DNA of 63,473 bases, the filler included, from Globobulimina sp. (taxonomy: Eukaryota): NCBI GenBank assembly GCA_003354225.1. It is 57 parts of 57 records of this genome, joined end to end, with 100 filler letters (N's around TTAATTAATTAA, not from the genome) between each part and the next. Parts side by side here need not be neighbours in the genome. Positions count along the whole stretch, not along the records: positions 44,627 to 45,641 come from PIVH01025756.1; 56 more parts are not named here. One strand, 5' to 3'. Positions 4,366 to 53,446 of the stretch are shown in pieces. Under the pieces are notes generated by a model. That model worked only from the letters and a program-made list of their open reading frames with translations. It did not search any database and was not told where the DNA came from. Position 1 is the stretch's first letter; each line of letters opens with the position of its first letter. The position numbers and the translations under genes were made by a program.

Positions 4366-5581
4366 NNNNNNNNNNNNNNNNNNNNNNNNNNNNNNNNNNN
4401 NNNNNNNNNTTAATTAATTAANNNNNNNNNNNNNNNNNNNNNNNNNNNNNNNNNNNNNNNNNNNNAGCTGTTGATATCCAAAATCTATTATTTGTTGTAA
4501 CACGAGGTGTTACCTTTTGTGCACATTGTCTTTTATTCCCTCTATTACCACGCCATTGTAAGCTTTTTACATTTTCATATGACTGTGCTGGACACGCAGA
4601 TACTTTATGTGATTGCGGGAATGTTTTATTTAGAGTGTGCATTCGGAGTTGGTTCGTTTGTATATTGTTTATCATTTTTATCACATCGATTGTTATAAAA
4701 CGGATGGCGATGGCATGGTTTCTGTTTTTTTTGATTATTCACTTTGTAATTTCCTGGCCTATTCTTTCTTTTTCTCGCGTTGATTCTAGTTTTCATTTAA
4801 TTTGCAAACATCAAAATAAACAAATAAAAGTAAAATAAAACTATTATAAACTTATGATCTTTGGTCCATTGTTGGTATAAATCAGGAGCGCTTTGTTGAT
4901 ATGCATCTGGAAAATAATGTGGCGATGGAGGTTTTTGGGCCAATGGTTGGTCAGTATCAAATGCATATGGTTGATACGAATGGAAAGGTGGTATATGATG
5001 TATAATTCTTATCATTTGAATGTGTAGGTTTTCAGTATACAAAAAATACAAAACACAAACAGAAATTATCGATTCTTAACATTATTATTGGAGTTATTAT
5101 TTGATTGATTATTTGATTTATTATTTGAATTTGTTTGATTGCAGTTATTATTGGCGTTGTTACTTCCATTTAGTTCAAATGACATAGCGGCTATTTAATT
5201 GCGATTGGATGTTTGTTGCAACTCTTAATTAAATGTTTGTTATTTGTTTGTGGTGTTTATTTCTAAGAGAGGTCAATTTAAACAGTATAGGTTAAGTGTC
5301 CGATGTTTCGACAGTAAAGTGGAATTAAACTAACAAAAATCAGAAAACTAAGCCCGAGAAGAAATGAGAGTATAAAAAATTGGCGTTACTGGTGTTAAGA
5401 AATTGATAAAAAATAAAATGAATATGGACTAAACGATACATTCCAAAATATACCCCCCCCCCACCCTGTTTGGATAACCCCNNNNNNNNNNNNNNNNNNN
5501 NNNNNNNNNNNNNNNNNNNNNNNNNTTAATTAATTAANNNNNNNNNNNNNNNNNNNNNNNNNNNNNNNNNNNNNNNNNNNN

Positions 5582-18187: not shown

Positions 18188-18873
18188 TTATTTTATAAAT
18201 TCATTTGTTTGTTTATTATTTACAGTTTGTGTCACAGCAATAGCTTGTGTCATTTGTATCTGATCATTTCGATGCGCATCGCGTTCAATCCCAGCATAAA
18301 TAAATGTTAATTCTCCTAAAATTGCAGGAGTTAACAATATCCCATGAGATACAGCAATAGTTATAATCCCAGCAAACATATAAAAGAATATTCTAAAGGC
18401 CGCAGATTTGCTAAATATTAACGCTAAACAGCCTAAAAAAGTGGTAAACGCGCCTTTGATGACCGATGTACCCATTTCAAAGAATGCGATTTCAATTTTC
18501 TCATCGAATGTATTCCCATTCGCGTCCGCAATGGCATGCGTTATATGGATGACATAGTCCACAGTCAAACCCACCGCCATCACACACTGTGTATATGATA
18601 CCGTATCCAATGATACATTCAATAGCCACATCCATCCAAATAAATTGACATCAATCATGGTTACAATGACAATAATAAATATACTCATTCTTAAATCTAA
18701 CAACAACAACAATACGCAGAATATACCGATTCCTATATATTGTTTTTACAAATAACATTGCATAGAGACTAGAGAGGTCTGTGCAATCTGTAACGTATTA
18801 CCTGCAAATATCATATTTTCAATGGTGAGGCGAACAATGGAATACGATAAAAAAGCATAGCAATACGTGTCAG
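18188..18873 (-). CDS. Patched/NPC1-family (RND/SSD) membrane protein, C-terminal part
   Basis: MAVGLTVDYVIHITHA...MGTSVIKGAFTTFLG...FRIFF.MF...HGILLTPAIL. Intron 18733-18801 restores frame. Confidence 0.88.
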
Positions 18874-23437: not shown

Positions 23438-24318
23438 TAATTGGAACTGCGTGGACCCATCTTCTGTTTTTGCACAAATTGATGCGTTTATACAAAGATG
23501 CCGCGATTTGTTGACGGTTTGCAAAGGGCAGTTACAATTTTGTCGGAATAAGAATGATAACATATTGACTTCGTTTGGCGGAGCAAAGGGAAATTTAATT
23601 ATAAAATCGTTGTTTGAAATCGAGGATGGCTTTTTGAAACATATTGAAAAATTAAAGAATTTGAATTATAACATATTGGACGTGAACACTACCAAATGGC
23701 ACGAAGATTATACGTATTTTAAGAATGGCGTGAAAGATTTGGAGGTGATGATGAGTAATATTATAAATAATGCATTTGATGGCATCTCCACCATTGAAGA
23801 TGGCATCAATTTGTTGGCTTCGTTTATTGAATTATCCAAAACGGAATCCATGAAACAAAATATTGAACGGAAACTGTCAGAGTTATATCAATTATGCATC
23901 GAATCTGCACTATTAATCAAGAAAGACTTTGATAAGTATCACCACCATACATCGGCCTTGATAATAAATGAGAATTTACCCAAATATGGCGGTGCAGCAT
24001 TATGGGTCTTAGGATTAAGGCAACGGCTATTAAAACAAATAAATTATTTAAAATATTCGGTATTGTTGCCAGCTACAAAGGAAAAACAGGAAGCAATCTC
24101 GCTATCTGCACAAGTGTATGATGTGTTAAATGTGTATTTGAAGCAGAAACATATTGAGTTTGATGCGAAGATTAATAAAATGGATGTTGATCAAGAATTA
24201 GATTCCAGACTAAATAAACCATTGTTATCTCCATCAGCCATCGATTCGCAGTTAATTAAAAAAGATGGCATTTCTGGTCATTTAGTATGCAATTTTGATC
24301 AGGATTTGTTGCGGATGA
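23438..24318 (+). CDS. Axonemal dynein heavy chain N-terminal (DHC_N1) region, DNAH2-like
   Basis: SSVFAQIDAFIQRCRDLL.VC...YNILDV.TTKWHEDY..FKNGVKDLEVMMSNIIN.AF...LVCNFD. Confidence 0.85.
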
Positions 24319-24453
24319 TCCGCGATGGCATGCCGGGCACAGCCATGCCGGGCTGGGGTGATATGCTGTCCGAACAGGACATGATCGATGTTATTGCCTA
24401 TATCAAGACATTTGCAGAGCTGGAAGGGGAACCTGATACCCAGCTTGATTACG
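24301..24453 (+). CDS. Bacterial c-type cytochrome fragment joined in frame to dynein (probable chimera)
   Basis: DLLRMIRDGMPGTAMPGWGDMLSEQDMIDVIAYIKTF is a cytochrome c distal-Met region. GC content rises abruptly. Confidence 0.75.
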
Positions 24454-31621: not shown

Positions 31622-31703
31622 TCCACACCGTAGGATTCGAACCTACATCCATTTGGTTTGTAATTCATTCAAACCAATGCTCTACCAATTGAGCTAGGTG
31701 CTC
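31622..31703 (-). tRNA. tRNA-like sequence (pseudo-tRNA or SINE head; possible GAA anticodon)
   Basis: D arm GCTC/GAGC, T arm GTAGG-TTCGAAT-CCTAC, intact A and B boxes. The acceptor stem has two terminal mismatches and the anticodon loop is expanded. Confidence 0.7.
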
Positions 31704-32361: not shown

Positions 32362-33376
32362 ATATTTGAATTTGCATTCCTTAACATTTTAATAATAATC
32401 AAATGCCGCTTAACAATGGCAATGGTTAATGCTATCTGTCCATTACAATCAGTTCCATTCACATTCGCGCCGAGTGACAACAGCACATTTAACGAATCTT
32501 TTTGGTTATAATATGCCGCTAAATGCAATGCTGTGCATCCAGCAATAACCGCATTGCTGTGATTTGCATCAATGCCCAATGTTTGGTTCAAATCAACGCC
32601 ATACTCATACAGCATTTTAATGCATTCTTCGTGATTCGTCTGATCGGTAACCGTAAAATTTGGGAAATCCAAACATGAAAACAATGCGTTGAAGCCATTT
32701 GCTTTCGATTCATAGTTATAAACAAACCCTTTGTTATCAATATAATTTAACAGCAATTCCAAGACTTTTGAATGACCCAAACGACAGCAATCAATAATGA
32801 GCGAATCGCCATTTTTATTCACCACATCCACGCGGACCACATTCGTCGATAATAATATTTCTGCAAAATTTGGATTGCCACACTTACAGATTGCCGACAT
32901 TGGTGTATTTCCCTCGAGATTCGCAAAATTGACATCGGCTTTCTGTTTAATTAATGCTTTGATAATGGATGGATACACATTTCGCAATGTTTGTGGTGGA
33001 CATTTGACGCAGGTGATATACAACGGAGTGTTTCCAAATGCATTCGGGGTATCAATGGCCGTCTTATTCAATTTAATAAAATATTCAACGTGGGCTACGT
33101 TACCAGTTTCACACGCTTTGTATAGCGCAGTCTCGCCATTTTCATTGGTCTCAATGATTAAGTTTGGGCTATGTGCTAATAGCAATTTGGCCAAATTCAA
33201 GTATAATTGGGCCAGTTTTGAATCATACCTTGTCGGAATACAATAATTTAACAACATGTCGATAGTTGCAGTTACATTGTATTTATTAATCAGCACTTCC
33301 ACCATTTTCAGCATCCTTTTCTTCAAACACAAAATCAAATATTTATCAAAATCAATGTCAGAGTGTTTGTATGTGC
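32362..33376 (-). CDS. Ankyrin repeat protein (internal fragment)
   Basis: Multiple G.T[AP]L..A motifs (GETALYKAC, GNTPLY, GCTALHLAA). Confidence 0.93.
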
Positions 33377-33476: not shown

Positions 33477-34491
33477 GTGTTTATACCATTTATGATTTTG
33501 CATTTTCTCCATTGTTATCCTTTTGTCACTGTCATAAAATAGCATTTTTGTAATTAAATCTGTCTCATATTTCTTCAGACCGCATTTTCTATGCAATTTC
33601 CAAAAAGATTGGTAATTACCATTCGCGATATGGCCGTACCATTTATCAGTGATATCTGAATCGCATTTATCACAGACAATTCATCGCGTTTTATACACAA
33701 GAAATATATAAAAATATCTGTACATATACCTGCGCACTTAAATGGGGGATATCCGGTCATCAAAATAAATAAAACAACGCCCATGGAAAATATGTCGCAT
33801 TTGTACGTATAATACAAGCCCATCGACGTCAAATCCGCGCCATTCTGCAAGATATTATTCATATTTACGATTTCCGGCGCTTGATACCCCCGGGTACCGA
33901 CGCGCGGATTTGATAATTTCACATTGGAGATATGATCCACTGCACTGATTTTACAGATTTTGCTGAGCCCAAAATCAGTGATTTTCAAATTATAGCCGTT
34001 GTCCAATAATAAATTCTGAGGCTTAATGTCTCTGTGGATGATGCCATGGCGATGTAAATGGGCGATGCCGTCGCATAATTGATGAAAATATGTGCGCGCT
34101 AATATGGCTTCTAAGTGCGATGTATAATATAATAAATCGAATAATTCGCCGCCGGGACAATATTCTAAGACCAATAATATGACCGCCCGGTCCTTACCAT
34201 TCTTATCTGGATATTTTTGATTTAAATTATACGCAATTAATTTGATAATTTGTGCGTTTTTACCAATGCTGCGTAGCACTGATATCTCAGTCTCAACCTG
34301 TTTGATTTGCGATTTTCGCAATTTGCCAGTTGCGTCTTTTTTGCGCTCCATAAATTTCAATGCGTATCGCTTGTTTGTTTTTACATCAATGCCCATTTTT
34401 ACCCAGGAATAGCCGCCTTTGCCTAAGGTTTTATCAATATACCATTGCCCTATTCGTCTTTTTTTTGTTTCTTTTTGTTCGACATAGTCTG
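33477..34491 (-). CDS. Ser/Thr protein kinase (CAMK-like)
   Basis: LGKGGYSWV, ALK, HRDIKPQN, DFG, APE and DIFSMG motifs. Intron 33656-33729 restores the C-lobe (…DKRIT…HKW). Confidence 0.95.
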
Positions 34492-41283: not shown

Positions 41284-42296
41284 TCTGAACAGGAAGAAGA
41301 TGCTAATGAGCACCCAAACATTCAAGAAACAGAAATTGATACCTCATCAAATCCAGACGATGACAATAATAACGATTTAGAAGACTTACCGTTATCACTC
41401 GATTCGTGGGAATCGTTAGATTTACACAAAAACACTTTATTAGCTCTATACAAACAAGGATTTGAGAAAATGATGAAAATCCAAGAATTATCCATCCCGC
41501 TCTTATTAACTGGCGAGAACTTAGTTGGTTCGGCACGCACTGGTTCTGGTAAGACATTAGCATTTCTAGTGCCAACCATTGAAATCATATTAGACAACGA
41601 CTGGGATTATAGAGCCGATGGTGTGGCCGCATTGATCATTGCGCCCACTCGCGAGTTAGCTATGCAAATCAGACATGTTGGCAATAATATTTGTGAATTT
41701 CATGCGATGTTGAAACTTGGTTTACTGATTGGCGGCAACCCGCGTCATTCGGATATTGTCCATATCACCAAAGGTATGACGATATGCATAGCGACACCCG
41801 GCCGGTTATTGGATCACTTAATAAGAACCAAAGAGTTTCAATGTAAAAACGTTAAAATATTGGTGTTGGATGAAGCGGATAGAATATTGGACGAAGGCTA
41901 CGAGAAAGAGATTAAAGAGATTTTAAAATATTTACCCAAAAAAAGGCGGCAAACCATACTGTTTTCAGCCACACAAACGCAGAAAACCAAGGATTTGATC
42001 CGCTTATCGTTTAACAAGAAACCGCACTTTGTGGATGATGGCAGCTGTATTGATTACTCACTTATTATTAAAACGAAAGGCAGCAAAAATAATGTGGTGC
42101 CAACCAGAGAATGTTTAGGTTTGTCAATGTATTTTTTGTGCACAAAATTGAGAGTAAAGTCAATATAAACAGTCCAAGGATACATTTTGGTGGATGTTCG
42201 ATATAAATTTTTATTGTTGTTTAGTTTTATAAAGAAACATTATTTGAATAAGAAGATAATGGTTTTTTTCAGTACTGTTTTTGTGACAAAACATTT
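41284..42296 (+). CDS. DDX18: DEAD-box RNA helicase, HAS1/DDX18 subfamily (partial)
   Basis: ARTGSGKTLAF, PTRELA, TPGRLLDHL, DEAD and SATQT motifs. Intron 42119-42172 gives QGY...KFLLLFSFIKK...KKIMVFFS. Confidence 0.88.
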
Positions 42297-43513: not shown

Positions 43514-44526
43514 AATCACAATAACAAACACAAAATACTTGACGGAAGAGCTCAAAATCCTGACAATTCAGGCATTTATGAGAACATACGTATACATTAC
43601 GACACCTCCCAACTAGAAACTGATTGGTCAGACTACAGCAAGAAATCCTATTTTGTAGATGATGTAATCCCAGCAGCATATGAATGGCTAATGAAAGTGA
43701 TCTCAGTTCGGCCCGTTTCAGGAGCATTAACATTTGATGTACGTTGCGATAATAATGATGGAACGGTATGGACCTCCGGACCAAACAGAGGACAATGTGT
43801 GGAACCAAATGACGACTGGCAACAATGTGGCGATACAGGCGCAATTATCCCACAATATATGTTTGATTCGCAGTTAATATGTCGCGAAGCTGATGGTGAC
43901 TGTGAGTCGTCGACCTATGCCCAAGGCGACGGCATGTCTGCCACCGATTTAGTTATATTCTTTACAGGCGACCCAAGCAGAGATAATAGCAAACATTGCG
44001 ACAACGTGATGGGCTTCGCAGCATATTGCCATACAAACGCGCGAGATCGCCCTATCGCTGGCTACGTGAATCTATGTCGATCTACAATTGATTCCACCGA
44101 TGTGTTAACGTGGGAGGAGACCATCTCATTAATTGTCCACGAAACCTTTCACGTTTTAGGTTTCAGCTCTGATGGTTTTGATCACTTTAAGAATGAGGAT
44201 GGTACGGACCGCACCGATGTATATTCGAAGATCGTCAAACGTGGCAAATTGCGCGCTGTCATAACCTTACCTACGGTGGTCGAGAAAGCGCAGCAATTCT
44301 TTGACTGTGCCAGTATGGACGGCATAGAGTTGGAGGACTACGGTGTGGATTGGGCCGGTGAGCCCGCCTCGCATTGGGATAATCGCATCGTTGCTTATGA
44401 TTTTATGATAAGTTATGTGCCGCCGGCTGCACCCTATGGGCTATTCACATTAGCTGTGTTGCACGATAGTGGCTGGTATGACATTAACTGGAAGTATGCG
44501 CAAGAAACGCCGCATGGCAGAGGCAA
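43514..44526 (+). CDS. Leishmanolysin/GP63-like metalloprotease (peptidase M8), partial
   Basis: RPIAGYVNLC, HETFHVLGF (HExxH), GIELED...SHW..R...M, and TLAVLHDSGWY. Confidence 0.93.
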
Positions 44527-44626: not shown

Positions 44627-45641
44627 AGTGCTCAATCTTCTGATGTTGTGGGCTATTACAGATACCAACTCAAACAAATCAACAAGTTGATTGATAAACT
44701 GGAAAAACACACACACAAAGTGGTCTTATTTTCATTCAATGGAGCCAGGTATGGATTAATAATCAGTATATAAAATATAAAACTATTTTTTGCAGGTTTG
44801 ACATGAAACTGTGTCGTGACCATCTAATTGAACAACTATTCAAAAACGAACAGACAAAACCAACAGCATGTATAAAACGAAATGGCGCATATACATTGTT
44901 ATCAACAGAAAAACTGGTATTCAGGGATTTTGCTCAACTATTACCTCCAGGTAAACAATTTTGCAGAAATGGTATGCTGTAAGTATATACATAGATATTT
45001 AGGTACATCACTGGATAAATTCCTAAAAAGTCAATCAGTCTCAGTATTGAAATCAATATTTCCCTATGACTGGATGGATTGCCTACAGAAGGTAAAATAA
45101 ATGCTATCTAACAATAGTTTTACATACACACTCAAAATTTTAATTTCAGCTGGAACAAAACCATTTACCACCAAGAGAAGTTTTTTATAACAGCCTAACA
45201 AAACAAAATGTCTCCATGGCCGACTATACTGCAGCACAATCAATATTCCAATCTTCTTGCTCAAATATGTGGGATTACTTGGAAGAGTAAACAATATTCA
45301 TCTTTGACATACATATCAGTACCAACATTCCATTCTTTCAGCTATAACATAAAGGATGTAGAAGGGTTTGTACCTGCAATAGAATCAATGCAACAACAGT
45401 GGAAACAACTCGATCTATGCCTCATCAACGACGGTATTAGCTTATCATCCTTGGCATACAAACTCATGCATAGATCAGCGGCACCTAAACAATCGGTTAT
45501 TTGGCTGCCCAGGCGTCAAGAAAAATTTGTATTTGACGCCATTTCAAAGGCTATCATTGGTAAGTTTGATTGTTTCTCCTTTTGATATATAATACATAAA
45601 ATGATCATGTTTAGGTGGCCCATCCCTCTGCTCTACCCGTT
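44627..45641 (+). CDS. Polinton/Maverick-type protein-primed DNA polymerase B, six-exon internal fragment (not resolved by ORF track)
   Basis: GT-AG introns at 44749-44795, 44951-45002, 45092-45149, 45287-45341 and 45560-45614. The spliced frame is stop-free: FNGARFD...FRDFAQLLPPGTSLDKFLK...KSIFPYDWMD...LPPREVFYNSL...DYLEDYNIKDV...DGISLSSLA...IIGGPS. Confidence 0.88.
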
Positions 45642-45742: not shown

Positions 45743-46736
45743 AAATTTGAACAAAAAAATGGACAAATTGATTAATCAGAAAAAATTCAAAGTTCCCGAG
45801 GACTTTCTAAATTGGATCCCAGTCCCGATTGGAAAACGACACGTTTTCCCTTTCAAATGTAATGTGGCAAAGCATAGTTTTCGGCAATGTATTTTCGGAA
45901 CTCAGGTAATTCATTTTGTTTATTGTGTGATAAGTGTGACCATGTCGACGATGGTTGACACTTTTAGTCATAACCAGTTTACTGATCAGTTTAACCATGG
46001 TGAAGATCATTGACAGTTTTGGTCATGACCAGTTTACTGGTCAGTGTGACCATGGCGACGATGGTTTACCATTCTGACAATGACCAGTTTATTGATCAGT
46101 GTGGCCATGTCGACGATGGTTTGACAGTTTTTTTGTCATGACCAGTTTACTGATCAGTGTGACCATTGCAACGATGGTTGCCCCGCTATAATTATAACCA
46201 GTTTTCTGATCAGTGTGATTTATGTGACCAGGGCTACAACTAAAAGTTATGTTAAAAATTTTCGATTTTCAGTGTCAAATGTTTATCAAGGAAAAAGCAC
46301 ATTGTGACGTCGAGTTTTTTGTCTCATGGAAGAAGGAAAATAAAACTAGAAAGCGTAAATCTACCAATGACCTGAAGGACAATGCACCCCTTCCCAAACC
46401 CATCGACATGCTTGCATGTTGTTGTTATTGTTACGATGTTGTTATCAAACCACTCTTTGTAAAGGCAAACACCGTCTACCACCATGAAGAGTCTTTAGGT
46501 TATTTTCGTGTTGATATTCGACAACAAGGATATTATCAAACCATACAAACTAACGGTCCAGGATTATTGTCCTGTTGCAATCCTGACTGTCCAACCACTG
46601 ACCAAGTCATTTGGAGGTTTTTTCACCTTGCGTATTATTTCCTGAGAAAAAGTTTCATTGTTATTGTATGAGCTGCTTTGAGCAACACCAACCCAATATT
46701 GCGGATTGCCCAAAATGCCAATTTGACACAACATAA
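45743..46736 (+). CDS. Spliced Cys-rich gene with a probable C-terminal RING-like finger (frameshifted at the T run near 46620)
   Basis: Intron 45906-46273. CCNPDC is followed in a shifted frame by PC...HCYCMSC...CPKC*. Confidence 0.45.
45928..46218 (+). repeat. About 55-bp minisatellite, about 5 copies, intronic
   Basis: ACCAGTTT anchor at 45973, 46028, 46083, 46141 and 46197. Confidence 0.92.
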
Positions 46737-52579: not shown

Positions 52580-53446
52580 CTACACATTTACAAACATTAC
52601 AGTCAAACAAAACGGAATCAAAACTATCCCGATAGTCACAGTAATAATTGATCCATATCGATTTATTGCAACACAACAGTTTCCTTTGTCGCTGTCTGAC
52701 GATGTGCTATAATAATAATATAAACCCGGTAAGATCAGCGTGCCCATTGGTGCTGAGGTAGATCCCATGAATCTCAACATTACTCCTAAATCGTCCACAA
52801 TCATCGTAACAATAAGCGATGCACTCATCCATACACTTGAAACAATATAAAACTTTGTTTTTGATATTTGTGATGCATTCTTTTTGTATAAAATGGATGA
52901 CAAACAATGTCTGCCTGGATTAGTAATGACGGGGTAAGAGCAGGCCACAGCAGTTAGTAAACCAACTCTCGCCAATACTGTTAATACGTCATTTTGCGGA
53001 TAATTGGTTAATATATTTGAATTCACATTGTTCCCAAATGTAAAATATCCGATCAATGCAGCGGATAAATATAACATCGATGTTAATACAAAGGTTGCTG
53101 TGGTCACATAATTCATTCTTGAAAAAGTAGAGTTTGATAATTCATTTGAAACAGAAAAAGAAAGTGAATGTGCTGCAAATGCACCGATATAAAATGGAAC
53201 AGCTTTAAAAAATGCAAATATATTTTCTGCTGAAAGTGTTTTCGAATATAGAATGATTACGCAAAGATCTCCAGCATTACAAATATTGACATCCGCATTG
53301 TTTAAAAATATAAGCATCATTATAATTATGTACAAAAAACATAAAATTGCAATGAATGAGGTGTATCTCAATGCATTTAATTTCTTTTTTATTGTCATTG
53401 GCAAAATTATAATTATGAGAAAAAAACAAATCCAAAATCTTCTCTG
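52580..53446 (-). CDS. Amino-acid transporter (AAAP/SLC38-like), C-terminal part
   Basis: LNALRYTS, GYFTFGNNVNSNILTNYP, SYP...P.R and ILPGLYY motifs, with multiple TM helices. Confidence 0.9.
   Translation of the reverse strand, partial: QRRFWICFFLIIIILPMTIKKKLNALRYTSFIAILCFLYIIIMMLIFLNNADVNICNAGDLCVIILYSKTLSAENIFAFFKAVPFYIGAFAAHSLSFSVSNELSNSTFSRMNYVTTATFVLTSMLYLSAALIGYFTFGNNVNSNILTNYPQNDVLTVLARVGLLTAVACSYPVITNPGRHCLSSILYKKNASQISKTKFYIVSSVWMSASLIVTMIVDDLGVMLRFMGSTSAPMGTLILPGLYYYYSTSSDSDKGNCCVAINRYGSIITVTIGIVLIPFCLTVMFVNV

Follow-up and report, generated by a model that had tools for sequence, protein, structure and literature searches.

Can a core replication gene of a Polinton/Maverick-type element take up spliceosomal introns, and is a gene that has done so still part of an element, a gene of its host, or a relic? 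The question is raised by one contig (PIVH01025756.1) of the Globobulimina sp. assembly GCA_003354225.1, which encodes a fragment of a putative family-B DNA polymerase of the protein-primed type (pPolB) interrupted by five introns. The contig, 1,015 bp long, occupies exactly and in its entirety positions 44627 to 45641 of the stretch of DNA analyzed here (63,473 nucleotides, referred to as the window), a composite of 57 unrelated contigs of 1,014 to 1,017 bp each, placed in order of descending length and joined by linkers of the form N50-TTAATTAATTAA-N50. Because the contigs are merely concatenated, the window neighbors of the pPolB contig are not its genomic context, and because the window is a pseudomolecule, a finding based on adjacency across the N linkers would be invalid. 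Comparisons with relatives indicate that the five introns are present in the DNA and were acquired by insertion into a pPolB gene. On balance, and with modest confidence, we regard the contig as an intron-bearing copy of a multicopy Polinton/Maverick-type lineage whose DNA copies inherit the introns.

Exon-intron structure of the polymerase contig

A three-frame reading of the contig gives six open segments in the frame order 1, 3, 1, 2, 3, 1, separated by five introns of 47, 52, 58, 55, and 55 bp, every one of the form GT...AG, and the removal of these introns leaves 249 stop-free codons. This direct reading bears out the intron set and the open frame of the original prediction made for this DNA. 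The intron phases are mixed (2, 1, 0, 2, 1), and the GC content of the introns is 0.247, against 0.388 in the exons and 0.35 in the whole contig. Among public sequencing runs, only one, here called X1, holds the contig (62% of its sampled words). This run gave five low-depth DNA contig pieces, whereas two further runs, X2 and X3, gave none. Contigs of X1 cover positions 44664 to 45343, through introns 1 to 4, with 0 to 5 differences and similar depth throughout; they contain no splice joints and give no cover beyond 45343, and, being DNA only, they are silent on splicing. The segments, with the donor and acceptor of each intron, are as follows.

44627 to 44748, plus strand: exon segment E1, translated in frame 1, 5'-open at the contig end; its last codons, FNGA and 2 nt of an Arg codon, make up the first half of Exo II
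44749 to 44795, plus strand: intron 1, 47 bp, phase 2, GTATGG...TTGCAG, GC 0.19; read through by the X1 DNA contig of record 1
44796 to 44950, plus strand: exon E2, which completes Exo II (R-F-D) and ends in LPP(G)
44951 to 45002, plus strand: intron 2, 52 bp, phase 1, GTAAAC...ATTTAG, GC 0.27; spanned by X1 record 3
45003 to 45091, plus strand: exon E3, (G)TSLDKFLK...CLQK, with the family-invariant K..FP
45092 to 45149, plus strand: intron 3, 58 bp, phase 0, GTAAAA...TTTCAG, GC 0.22; spanned by X1 record 4
45150 to 45286, plus strand: exon E4, LEQNHLPP...WDYLE plus 2 nt of an Asp codon
45287 to 45341, plus strand: intron 4, 55 bp, phase 2, GTAAAC...TTTCAG, GC 0.31
45342 to 45559, plus strand: exon E5, with Exo III (Y-N-I-K-D) at 45343 to 45357 and its Y, N, and D kept, ending in AIIG
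45560 to 45614, plus strand: intron 5, 55 bp, phase 1, GTAAGT...GTTTAG, GC 0.24
45615 to 45641, plus strand: exon segment E6, (G)GPSLCSTR, 3'-open at the contig end; fits the family consensus VGGPS

An open frame alone is weak evidence for this model, because 544 alternative five-intron sets (GT-AG, 40 to 90 bp) also leave the contig open. As a control, a hidden Markov model (HMM) was built from 13 uninterrupted relatives, none of them from the window, and all 544 conceptual products were scored. The predicted intron set ranks first of the 544 at 216.4 bits, with a runner-up at 206.5 bits, which differs only in the last donor, and a median of 137.6 bits; spliced in silico in this way, the product matches pPolB relatives as had been anticipated. 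Intron 1 is present in all eight top-ranked models, and the chosen donor of intron 5 outscores three alternative donors by 10 to 16 bits against the profile of uninterrupted relatives.

The same structure emerges from pairwise searches with tblastn, in which the alignments of uninterrupted relatives fall on the contig in colinear pieces, each in its predicted frame: P0023 covers E1, E2, and E3; P0018 covers E2, E3, and E4; and P0022 covers E3, E4, and E5. E1, which belongs to the best-scoring splice model, is matched colinearly by P0020 as well as by P0023. At the end of E2, which keeps the Exo II Asn and Asp, the matches from P0018, P0023, and P0006 stop at 44949 to 44952. E3 is the most widely matched exon (39 to 54% identity in loci of relatives), and its invariant K, F, and P are kept. 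P0005 matches E4 with residues 1 to 47 at exactly 45150 to 45284 and then resumes with residues 49 to 120 from 45343 on, which leaves one residue for the codon split by intron 4; E4 is also matched by P0009, P0012, P0018, and P0022. The four junction motifs named in the original prediction are real, each agreeing with the consensus of the family alignment (a slash marks the junction): FNGA(R)/FD corresponds to GFNSxxYD (Exo II), LPP(G)/TSL to APGxSY, YLE(D)/YNIKDV to WYNNKDV (Exo III), and IIG/GPS to VGGPS.

The exons were then laid on 81 fetched loci of relatives, 58 of which matched. The images of E3 and E4 lie 0 nt apart in 14 of the 16 listed loci that have both exons, the other two being off by one codon; the spacing between the images of E2 and E3 equals exactly the missing codons in three of three loci (L040, L031, and L035), as does that between the images of E4 and E5 in two of two (L032 and L017; 6 nt left). 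Since no coding sequence is missing at any junction, the introns are insertions into an ancestrally continuous gene. A chance pattern in AT-rich sequence, or an assembly artifact, might still be thought to explain the exon-intron reading, given that so many alternative sets keep the frame and that single exons match no Pfam family, but its probability is negligible: the proposed set scores best of all, numerous relatives give high-scoring segment pairs that run colinearly and change frame where predicted, intronless relatives show the exon images fitting together exactly, and Logan contigs of the public run, which may be the source sample, reproduce 44664 to 45343, including introns 1 to 4, with few differences. 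By these homology, splice-model, and exon-abutment comparisons, that explanation can be regarded as already refuted.

Two special origins of the insertions were also considered and rejected. The five introns show no likeness to one another (pairwise global alignment scores of -2 to 9 over 47 to 58 nt), and the lack of family resemblance and of any repeat-family signature speaks against introners. Ciliate-type internal eliminated sequences do not fit either, as direct reading gives GT...AG ends with an extended splice consensus rather than TA boundaries, and other contigs of the window contain long open reading frames (ORFs) under the standard code.

The polymerase family and its element context

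A phmmer search with E5 against 1.84 billion representative sequences gave seven matches at 36 to 90% identity, six of which are ORFs of 76 to 122 amino acids (aa). The 25.8-bit cutoff of PF03175 is exceeded by one of the matches, P0006 (an uninterrupted protein of 219 aa; 29.1 bits), and by the relatives P0014 (30.8 bits) and P0018 (46.8 bits), with P0012 just below at 25.4 bits; a cluster mate of P0006, P0008 (897 aa), led to 20 longer relatives. The named members of the family are proteins of marine animals, namely, a sea cucumber, a sea slug, and a ctenophore, and include a protein of Elysia chlorotica (P0015). The family protein is about 1,400 aa long and consists of N-terminal C2H2 zinc fingers (in P0012, for example, residues 1 to 100), a long linker, and the PF03175 protein-primed polymerase, with an internal insert of the pattern VDGF...YQFHGCxxHGxxC (about residues 940 to 1010 of P0012). 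Its consensus reads FDxE (Exo I), GFNSxxYD (Exo II), YNNKDV (Exo III), VGGPS, DANxLY (Pol A), KLxGNSxYG (Pol B), and MDTDS (Pol C). The contig fragment begins shortly ahead of Exo II and reaches VGGPS; Exo I and Pol A, B, and C lie beyond the contig ends, and the contig stops after E6, upstream of the polymerase motifs.

Exo II, read as N-G-A-R-F-D across intron 1, aligns to the invariant N636 and D641, and Exo III aligns to Y775, N776, and D779. In the reliably aligned span, the fragment retains 12 of the 13 residues that are invariant in the family and 8 of the 11 that are near-invariant, including the catalytic residues of Exo II and Exo III; the changes are Y to L, W to F, and N to I at near-invariant positions and L to R at an invariant one. 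A structural model of the exonuclease-polymerase module of a relative (L006; predicted local distance difference test [pLDDT] value of 89.6, predicted template modeling score [pTM] of 0.85) has phi29 polymerase as all nine of its best PDB matches (E values of 3e-13 to 8e-11; template modeling [TM] scores per target of 0.63 to 0.69), whereas family-B polymerases that are RNA primed (African swine fever virus, Pol epsilon, and archaeal) match at E values of 3.7e-7 or worse and TM scores of at most 0.34. The identification as a protein-primed PolB is thus supported by a family that passes PF03175 and by the phi29-nearest predicted fold of a relative, and the spliced product is accordingly best described as a predicted fragment of such a polymerase, covering its proofreading exonuclease domain between a point ahead of Exo II and a point shortly past Exo III.

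The Vsr family (PF03852) is the top Pfam match, below the 27-bit cutoff, for the inserts of two of four relatives (L004, E value of 6.5e-5, 23.1 bits; L015, E value of 0.075), and the other two inserts have no match; in the gene of the contig, this region would lie outside the sequenced 1,015 bp. A terminal-protein domain was not identified in the long N-terminal region of the relatives. An OTU-protease domain, suggested by the motif LCFFRCLA, was dropped after none of three regions matched it. Among longer targets of a word-indexed protein collection, E5 gave 24 candidates, none significant, and against viral contigs E5 and E2 gave 8 and 42 pattern matches, respectively, none of which was confirmed. 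Sequence searches of the PDB gave chance matches only for E5 and nothing relevant for P0009, and in a search with the family profile all 60 matches listed were zinc-finger proteins. A literature search found no paper that combines Polinton, C2H2, and pPolB. Searched with the family alignment, the viral contigs gave one distant match, at 21% identity to the polymerase half of the family, on a contig labeled as a giant-virus metagenome-assembled genome (L001:5049-5633).

The genomic surroundings of the family were examined in a scan of metagenome contigs, which gave 305 relatives and 80 loci that were kept, 33 of them long loci analyzed for neighbors. The flanking ORFs of the long loci form recurrent families in a conserved order, including several smaller conserved ORFs. 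Of the 33, 17 have an rve integrase with a chromodomain (51.9 bits), 15 have an A32-like ATPase (Pox_A32 at 20.6 bits, under the 22.8-bit cutoff), and 17 have a neighbor protein of about 450 aa. The model of the last (L025:12048-13481; 14 sequences; pLDDT of 72.6, pTM of 0.74) has the double jelly-roll fold of major capsid proteins, with matches to PBCV-1 Vp54 (E value of 1e-14), Sputnik (3e-12), and mavirus (2e-11). Among predicted structures, it is best matched by a protein that Cotesia sesamiae Mombasa bracovirus encodes and that is still uncharacterized (E value of 2e-25, 23% identity), which would fit a Maverick-derived gene inside a wasp bracovirus. A protease and a minor capsid protein were not identified among the remaining conserved ORFs of the long loci. 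In one locus, L015, inverted repeats of 55 nt (98% complementary) lie 17.6 kb apart around a complete pPolB-ATPase-capsid-integrase set; none were seen in the other five of six long loci examined, where they have probably been cut off by contig ends. L015 holds copies of this repeat at 806 to 860, 4993 to 5047, and 18452 to 18506 (96 to 98% complementary); a copy additional to the bracketing pair lies just upstream of the polymerase and suggests a nested or rearranged element. By gene content and predicted folds, the loci of the relatives qualify as Polinton/Maverick elements, and through them the assignment of the contig to this type, made earlier from its motifs, is supported by an rve integrase, an A32-like ATPase, a double jelly-roll capsid protein, and one locus with inverted repeats.

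In this family, the polymerase is normally uninterrupted. It forms one ORF of about 1,400 to 1,840 codons in 25 of the 33 long loci (with a short N-terminal piece set apart in two of the 25, L044 and L045) and is broken in the other 8, which are probably decaying copies. The broken loci include L035 (at L035:4927-4929), L030, L032, L037, L063, L070, and L071, and, L042 excepted, their stops and frame changes do not resolve to GT-AG introns. In the parts of the literature that bear on this point, core Maverick genes are called intronless in vertebrates (PMC8097293) and, with the polymerase included, in nematodes (bioRxiv 10.1101/2022.07.12.499685), and intronless Maverick or virophage core genes are also described in Cafeteria (PMC8547959); three surveys base their ORF-only gene calling on the absence of introns. 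The loci and these descriptions agree with the earlier statement that pPolB is normally a single intronless ORF, and the pPolB contig, with five introns in 1,015 bp, departs from it.

It is not the only departure. In a splice-aware pass over the 81 loci, L061 showed seven candidate GT-AG introns, and L042, L046, and L069 showed one apiece. The L061 introns are 107 to 167 bp long, lie in the polymerase half of the gene (L061:3955-6353), and are AT-richer than the exons; L061 itself is 60 to 78% identical to the ctenophore RefSeq model P0020. Shared introns between L061 and the contig were considered and rejected, as the stretch of L061 homologous to the contig fragment is uninterrupted, and for the same reason the intron gains in the two lineages would be independent. 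The lineage of the pPolB contig thus appears not to be unique, L061 representing a second intron-bearing lineage of the polymerase family.

Element lineage, host gene, or relic

The closest relatives of the contig are exon-sized ORFs, P0001 (90% identity over E5) and P0002 (57%). Both turn nonhomologous exactly at the E5 borders, where IIG is followed by G-K(-F), as a GTAAG donor would give, and the upstream residues of P0001 end in F-S, as a TTYAG/C acceptor would give. In P0002, 19 additional residues (V...Q) also separate YLE from YYNNMDV, the number that a 57-nt intron would add if translated in frame. P0003, at 40% identity, is without intron 5 and reads IVGGPALV straight through. Run X1 holds, besides the contig, a diverged E4 paralogue with a loose end GTAAGT at the same offset as intron 4 (record 5) and a further, nearly identical copy of E2 whose upstream differences lie within intron 1. 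The nearest Atlas clusters have 64 to 133 members, all exon-sized (73 to 82 aa) eukaryotic fragments, and PF03175 is found in 16% of the members of the cluster nearest to E5; these clusters serve as a lead on abundance only.

Between the contig and P0001, 65 of 72 residues of E5 are identical, compared with 10 of 23 codons in the intron-derived flanks. Because E5 is far better conserved than the flanking introns, purifying selection has probably acted on it, and together with the 12 of 13 invariant residues kept, this contrast upholds the suggestion of constraint first drawn from the intact frame. Constraint of this kind would also be expected of a domesticated host gene, that is, a captured Polinton polymerase or exonuclease, inherited vertically and expressed like a cellular gene, which took up introns during a long stay in the host; its diverged copies would then represent either a small gene family or the orthologues of related species. 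Such a gene would account for a frame that is intact over six exons with the invariant residues kept and for the conservation of E5 far above its introns, and intron sites shared down to 57% identity imply that the introns are old. The ctenophore relative P0020 is annotated in RefSeq as an ordinary multiexon gene ("isoform X1"), and seven introns are present in its look-alike L061. Lineages of active elements would, however, be equally expected to show purifying selection between copies, several diverged copies occur in one sample, and an intron density unlike that of the other sampled genes of the assembly misfits slow assimilation to host gene structure. No earlier description of a domesticated Polinton polymerase came to light in the literature search. 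We consider domestication rather improbable.

A quick maximum-likelihood tree (76 rows, 245 columns, unrooted), for which the tool warns of long-branch attraction, included 75 of 87 candidate relatives; 10 were dropped because they cover fewer than 180 of the 249 residues, and 2 were not matched. The contig groups with P0008 and P0009 (Shimodaira-Hasegawa-like approximate likelihood ratio test [SH-aLRT] support of 95) and then with L046 (97). Its branch is long (1.21, the median being 0.18), which in a domesticated gene could reflect a change of function and which would also fit a dead relic, a fragment of an old, inactive endogenous copy of an element in which the introns are real and no working polymerase is encoded. 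Decay is common in such elements: 96% of the endogenous Mavericks in vertebrates are given as decayed in part of one survey (PMC8097293), and 8 of the 33 long relatives here are broken. The contig itself has changed three near-invariant residues (Y to L, W to F, and N to I) and one invariant residue (L to R), and what can be inspected is limited to 249 codons. Those 249 codons, however, run through six exons with no stop or frameshift, all five pairs of splice sites are intact, the catalytic residues of Exo II and Exo III and 12 of the 13 invariants are kept, and the contrast between exon and intron conservation against P0001 is sharp. A relic is accordingly judged improbable, more so than a domesticated gene.

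Several observations weigh against an intron-bearing element lineage as well. The contig of the pPolB copy has no flanks, so that the integrase, capsid, and inverted repeats are known from relatives only; its nearest relatives, P0008, P0009, and L046, are on 4- to 6-kb contigs without identified neighbors; and its small clade in the tree is without an integrase-linked member, integrase-linked rows being found in several other clades, to which the long branch must be added. A scan of the other window contigs for element genes gave one marginal match only (E value of 0.001). The intron-4 site of P0002 agrees with that of the contig within one codon and is seemingly shifted by 2 nt (phase 0 against phase 2), so that the site may differ, and the extra copies in X1 could be alleles or could come from other organisms of a mixed sample. 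None of the five single exons, which are short, matched PF03175 or any other family in a Pfam scan. For the contig, no RNA run is listed, and the matching runs are DNA with the introns present.

Taking both sides together, we still favor an intron-bearing copy of a multicopy Polinton/Maverick-type lineage. In the history that we propose, a subfamily with N-terminal C2H2 zinc fingers and a Vsr-like insert would have gained five spliceosomal introns in its polymerase gene by insertion, and a small multicopy lineage would have arisen in which DNA copies inherit the introns, as one would expect if the element is copied at the level of DNA. The mRNA would arise in the nucleus, and its splicing would precede translation of the polymerase. 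On this account the introns are presumably spliced, this pPolB copy would still lie within an element, and the polymerase would replicate that element by protein priming. A stronger version is plausible, though short of probable: a Polinton/Maverick-type lineage with a spliceosome-dependent core replication gene, having about one short intron per 50 codons, with introns kept to 57% protein identity.

The host of this gene was approached through the other contigs of the window, several of which carry ordinary eukaryotic genes in ORFs open across 0.85 to 1 kb. Six are listed here, with the order of the names following that of the coordinates; they were chosen for their long ORFs, which biases the comparison with the pPolB contig.

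23439 to 24452, plus strand: N-terminal region of a dynein heavy chain
33575 to 34489, minus strand: protein kinase
32364 to 33374, minus strand: ankyrin repeats
43514 to 44524, plus strand: leishmanolysin M8
41284 to 42168, plus strand: DEAD-box helicase
52580 to 53446, minus strand: amino-acid transporter

The longest ORF has a median of 189 aa over the 57 contigs and reaches 250 aa in 19 of them, compared with 128 aa in the pPolB contig. The assembly looks long-exon or intron-poor, and the earlier description of the introns as having host-like density is not supported, five introns per kb being an outlier against the ORF lengths of contigs of the same assembly. The best named relative of the dynein fragment is from the foraminiferan Reticulomyxa filosa (47% identity), and another contig reaches 58% (proteins of up to 2,000 aa were searched), which points weakly to a rhizarian-type protist. 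Nothing supports the nematode host that had been suggested as one option, the dynein match being the sole taxonomic pointer. The sole Rfam match within the window is a tRNA (43 bits) at 31626 to 31700 on the minus strand. The contig that follows the pPolB contig in the window has about five tandem, imperfect repeats of about 55 to 60 bp at 45905 to 46270 (GACCAGTTTACTGATCAGTGTGACCATG...-like), inside an apparent GT...AG intron of about 370 bp between two Cys-rich coding segments.

The pPolB contig may, alternatively, come from a different organism than most of the window, as in a mixed or holobiont sample, in which case its intron density would reflect that other host; this would be compatible with each of the other readings. 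Its five introns per kb contrast with the dynein, kinase, ankyrin, leishmanolysin, DEAD helicase, and amino-acid transporter genes, each in an ORF as long as its contig, and with the median longest ORF of the 57 contigs. The named members of the polymerase family are from marine animals, and the dynein match points weakly to a rhizarian-type protist. The GC content of the contig (0.39 in exons, 0.35 overall) is nonetheless within the range of the window, the selection of the comparison genes for long ORFs is a bias, and a single run holds the contig, at similar depth throughout. A foreign source is unlikely, if less so than domestication or decay.

Known systems and the meaning of an interrupted polymerase gene

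The closest known counterparts of the family are the Polinton/Maverick pPolBs, above all a class termed marine pPolB2 with a VSR endonuclease domain, reported, in the part of the source concerned, from Polintons of molluscs (Elysia chlorotica and Batillaria) and marine nematodes (PMC10748475). The family of the contig resembles this class in its PF03175 exonuclease and polymerase motifs, in the rve integrase, A32-like ATPase, and double jelly-roll capsid genes that adjoin its relatives, in its E. chlorotica member (P0015), and, weakly, in the insert, for which Vsr is the top match in two of four relatives, below the cutoff; the Vsr-like insert and the E. chlorotica member point to this class. 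Unlike published core Polinton genes, which are intronless as far as these accounts go, the contig copy has five introns in 1 kb, and the C2H2 zinc fingers of its family go unmentioned in the relevant part of PMC10748475. The closest solved fold, that of phi29 polymerase (PDB 1xhx, 2pyj, and 2ex3), has the same order of DEDDy Exo I to III and Pol A, B, and C motifs, but at only 10 to 12% identity and without a match at the sequence level in the PDB; the proteins of the family, which contain zinc fingers, a long linker, and the Vsr-like insert, are about 2.5 times longer, and the contig gene appears as a eukaryotic nuclear gene with introns.

Intron-bearing elements of related kinds have been described. 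Endogenous Polinton-like viruses of dinoflagellates carry introner insertions, an exception to the intronless description in the portion of the source that treats them (PMC12166617), and as integrated Polinton-type elements with spliceosomal introns they are comparable to the contig's putative element. By the same portion of that source, their introns are copies of mobile introners, whereas those of the contig, at 47 to 58 bp, are mutually unlike, and its host signal is not dinoflagellate. In nematode Mavericks, introns travel with elements that are copied as DNA, as proposed for the contig's lineage, but, according to the passages on cargo genes, they lie in host-derived cargo (bioRxiv 10.1101/2022.07.12.499685), whereas in the contig the core polymerase itself is interrupted. 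The ctenophore protein P0020 (Bolinopsis microptera "uncharacterized protein LOC134824307 isoform X1") and L061 belong to the same zinc-finger pPolB family as the contig, but the introns of L061 lie in the polymerase half and are twice as long, and its identity to the contig fragment is about 27%.

Surveys of Polintons, virophages, and Polinton-like viruses, in the parts that describe their gene calling, assume intronless genes and use tools of the Prodigal or MetaGeneMark type. Because of this ORF-only gene calling, an intron-bearing lineage would be visible only as exon-sized scraps, and it is as such scraps that the relatives of the contig appear in protein collections (ORFs of 76 to 122 aa and Atlas clusters of 73 to 82 aa). 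A 1-kb fragment without context cannot carry a stronger claim, and a splice-aware census of Polinton genes is worthwhile. If intron-bearing Polinton genes are common, these elements are more numerous, and their host ranges wider, than has been counted. The interruption of a core gene also bears on how the element is expressed, by nuclear transcription followed by splicing, and the introns may mark the residence time of an element in one host lineage, and polymerase domestication; intron positions could serve as characters that separate descent from horizontal transfer. If the lineage does depend on the spliceosome, it would combine long-term persistence in the nucleus with obligatory splicing, and its introns may even have been favored, as intron-bearing transcripts could escape the silencing by which hosts act on intronless foreign genes.

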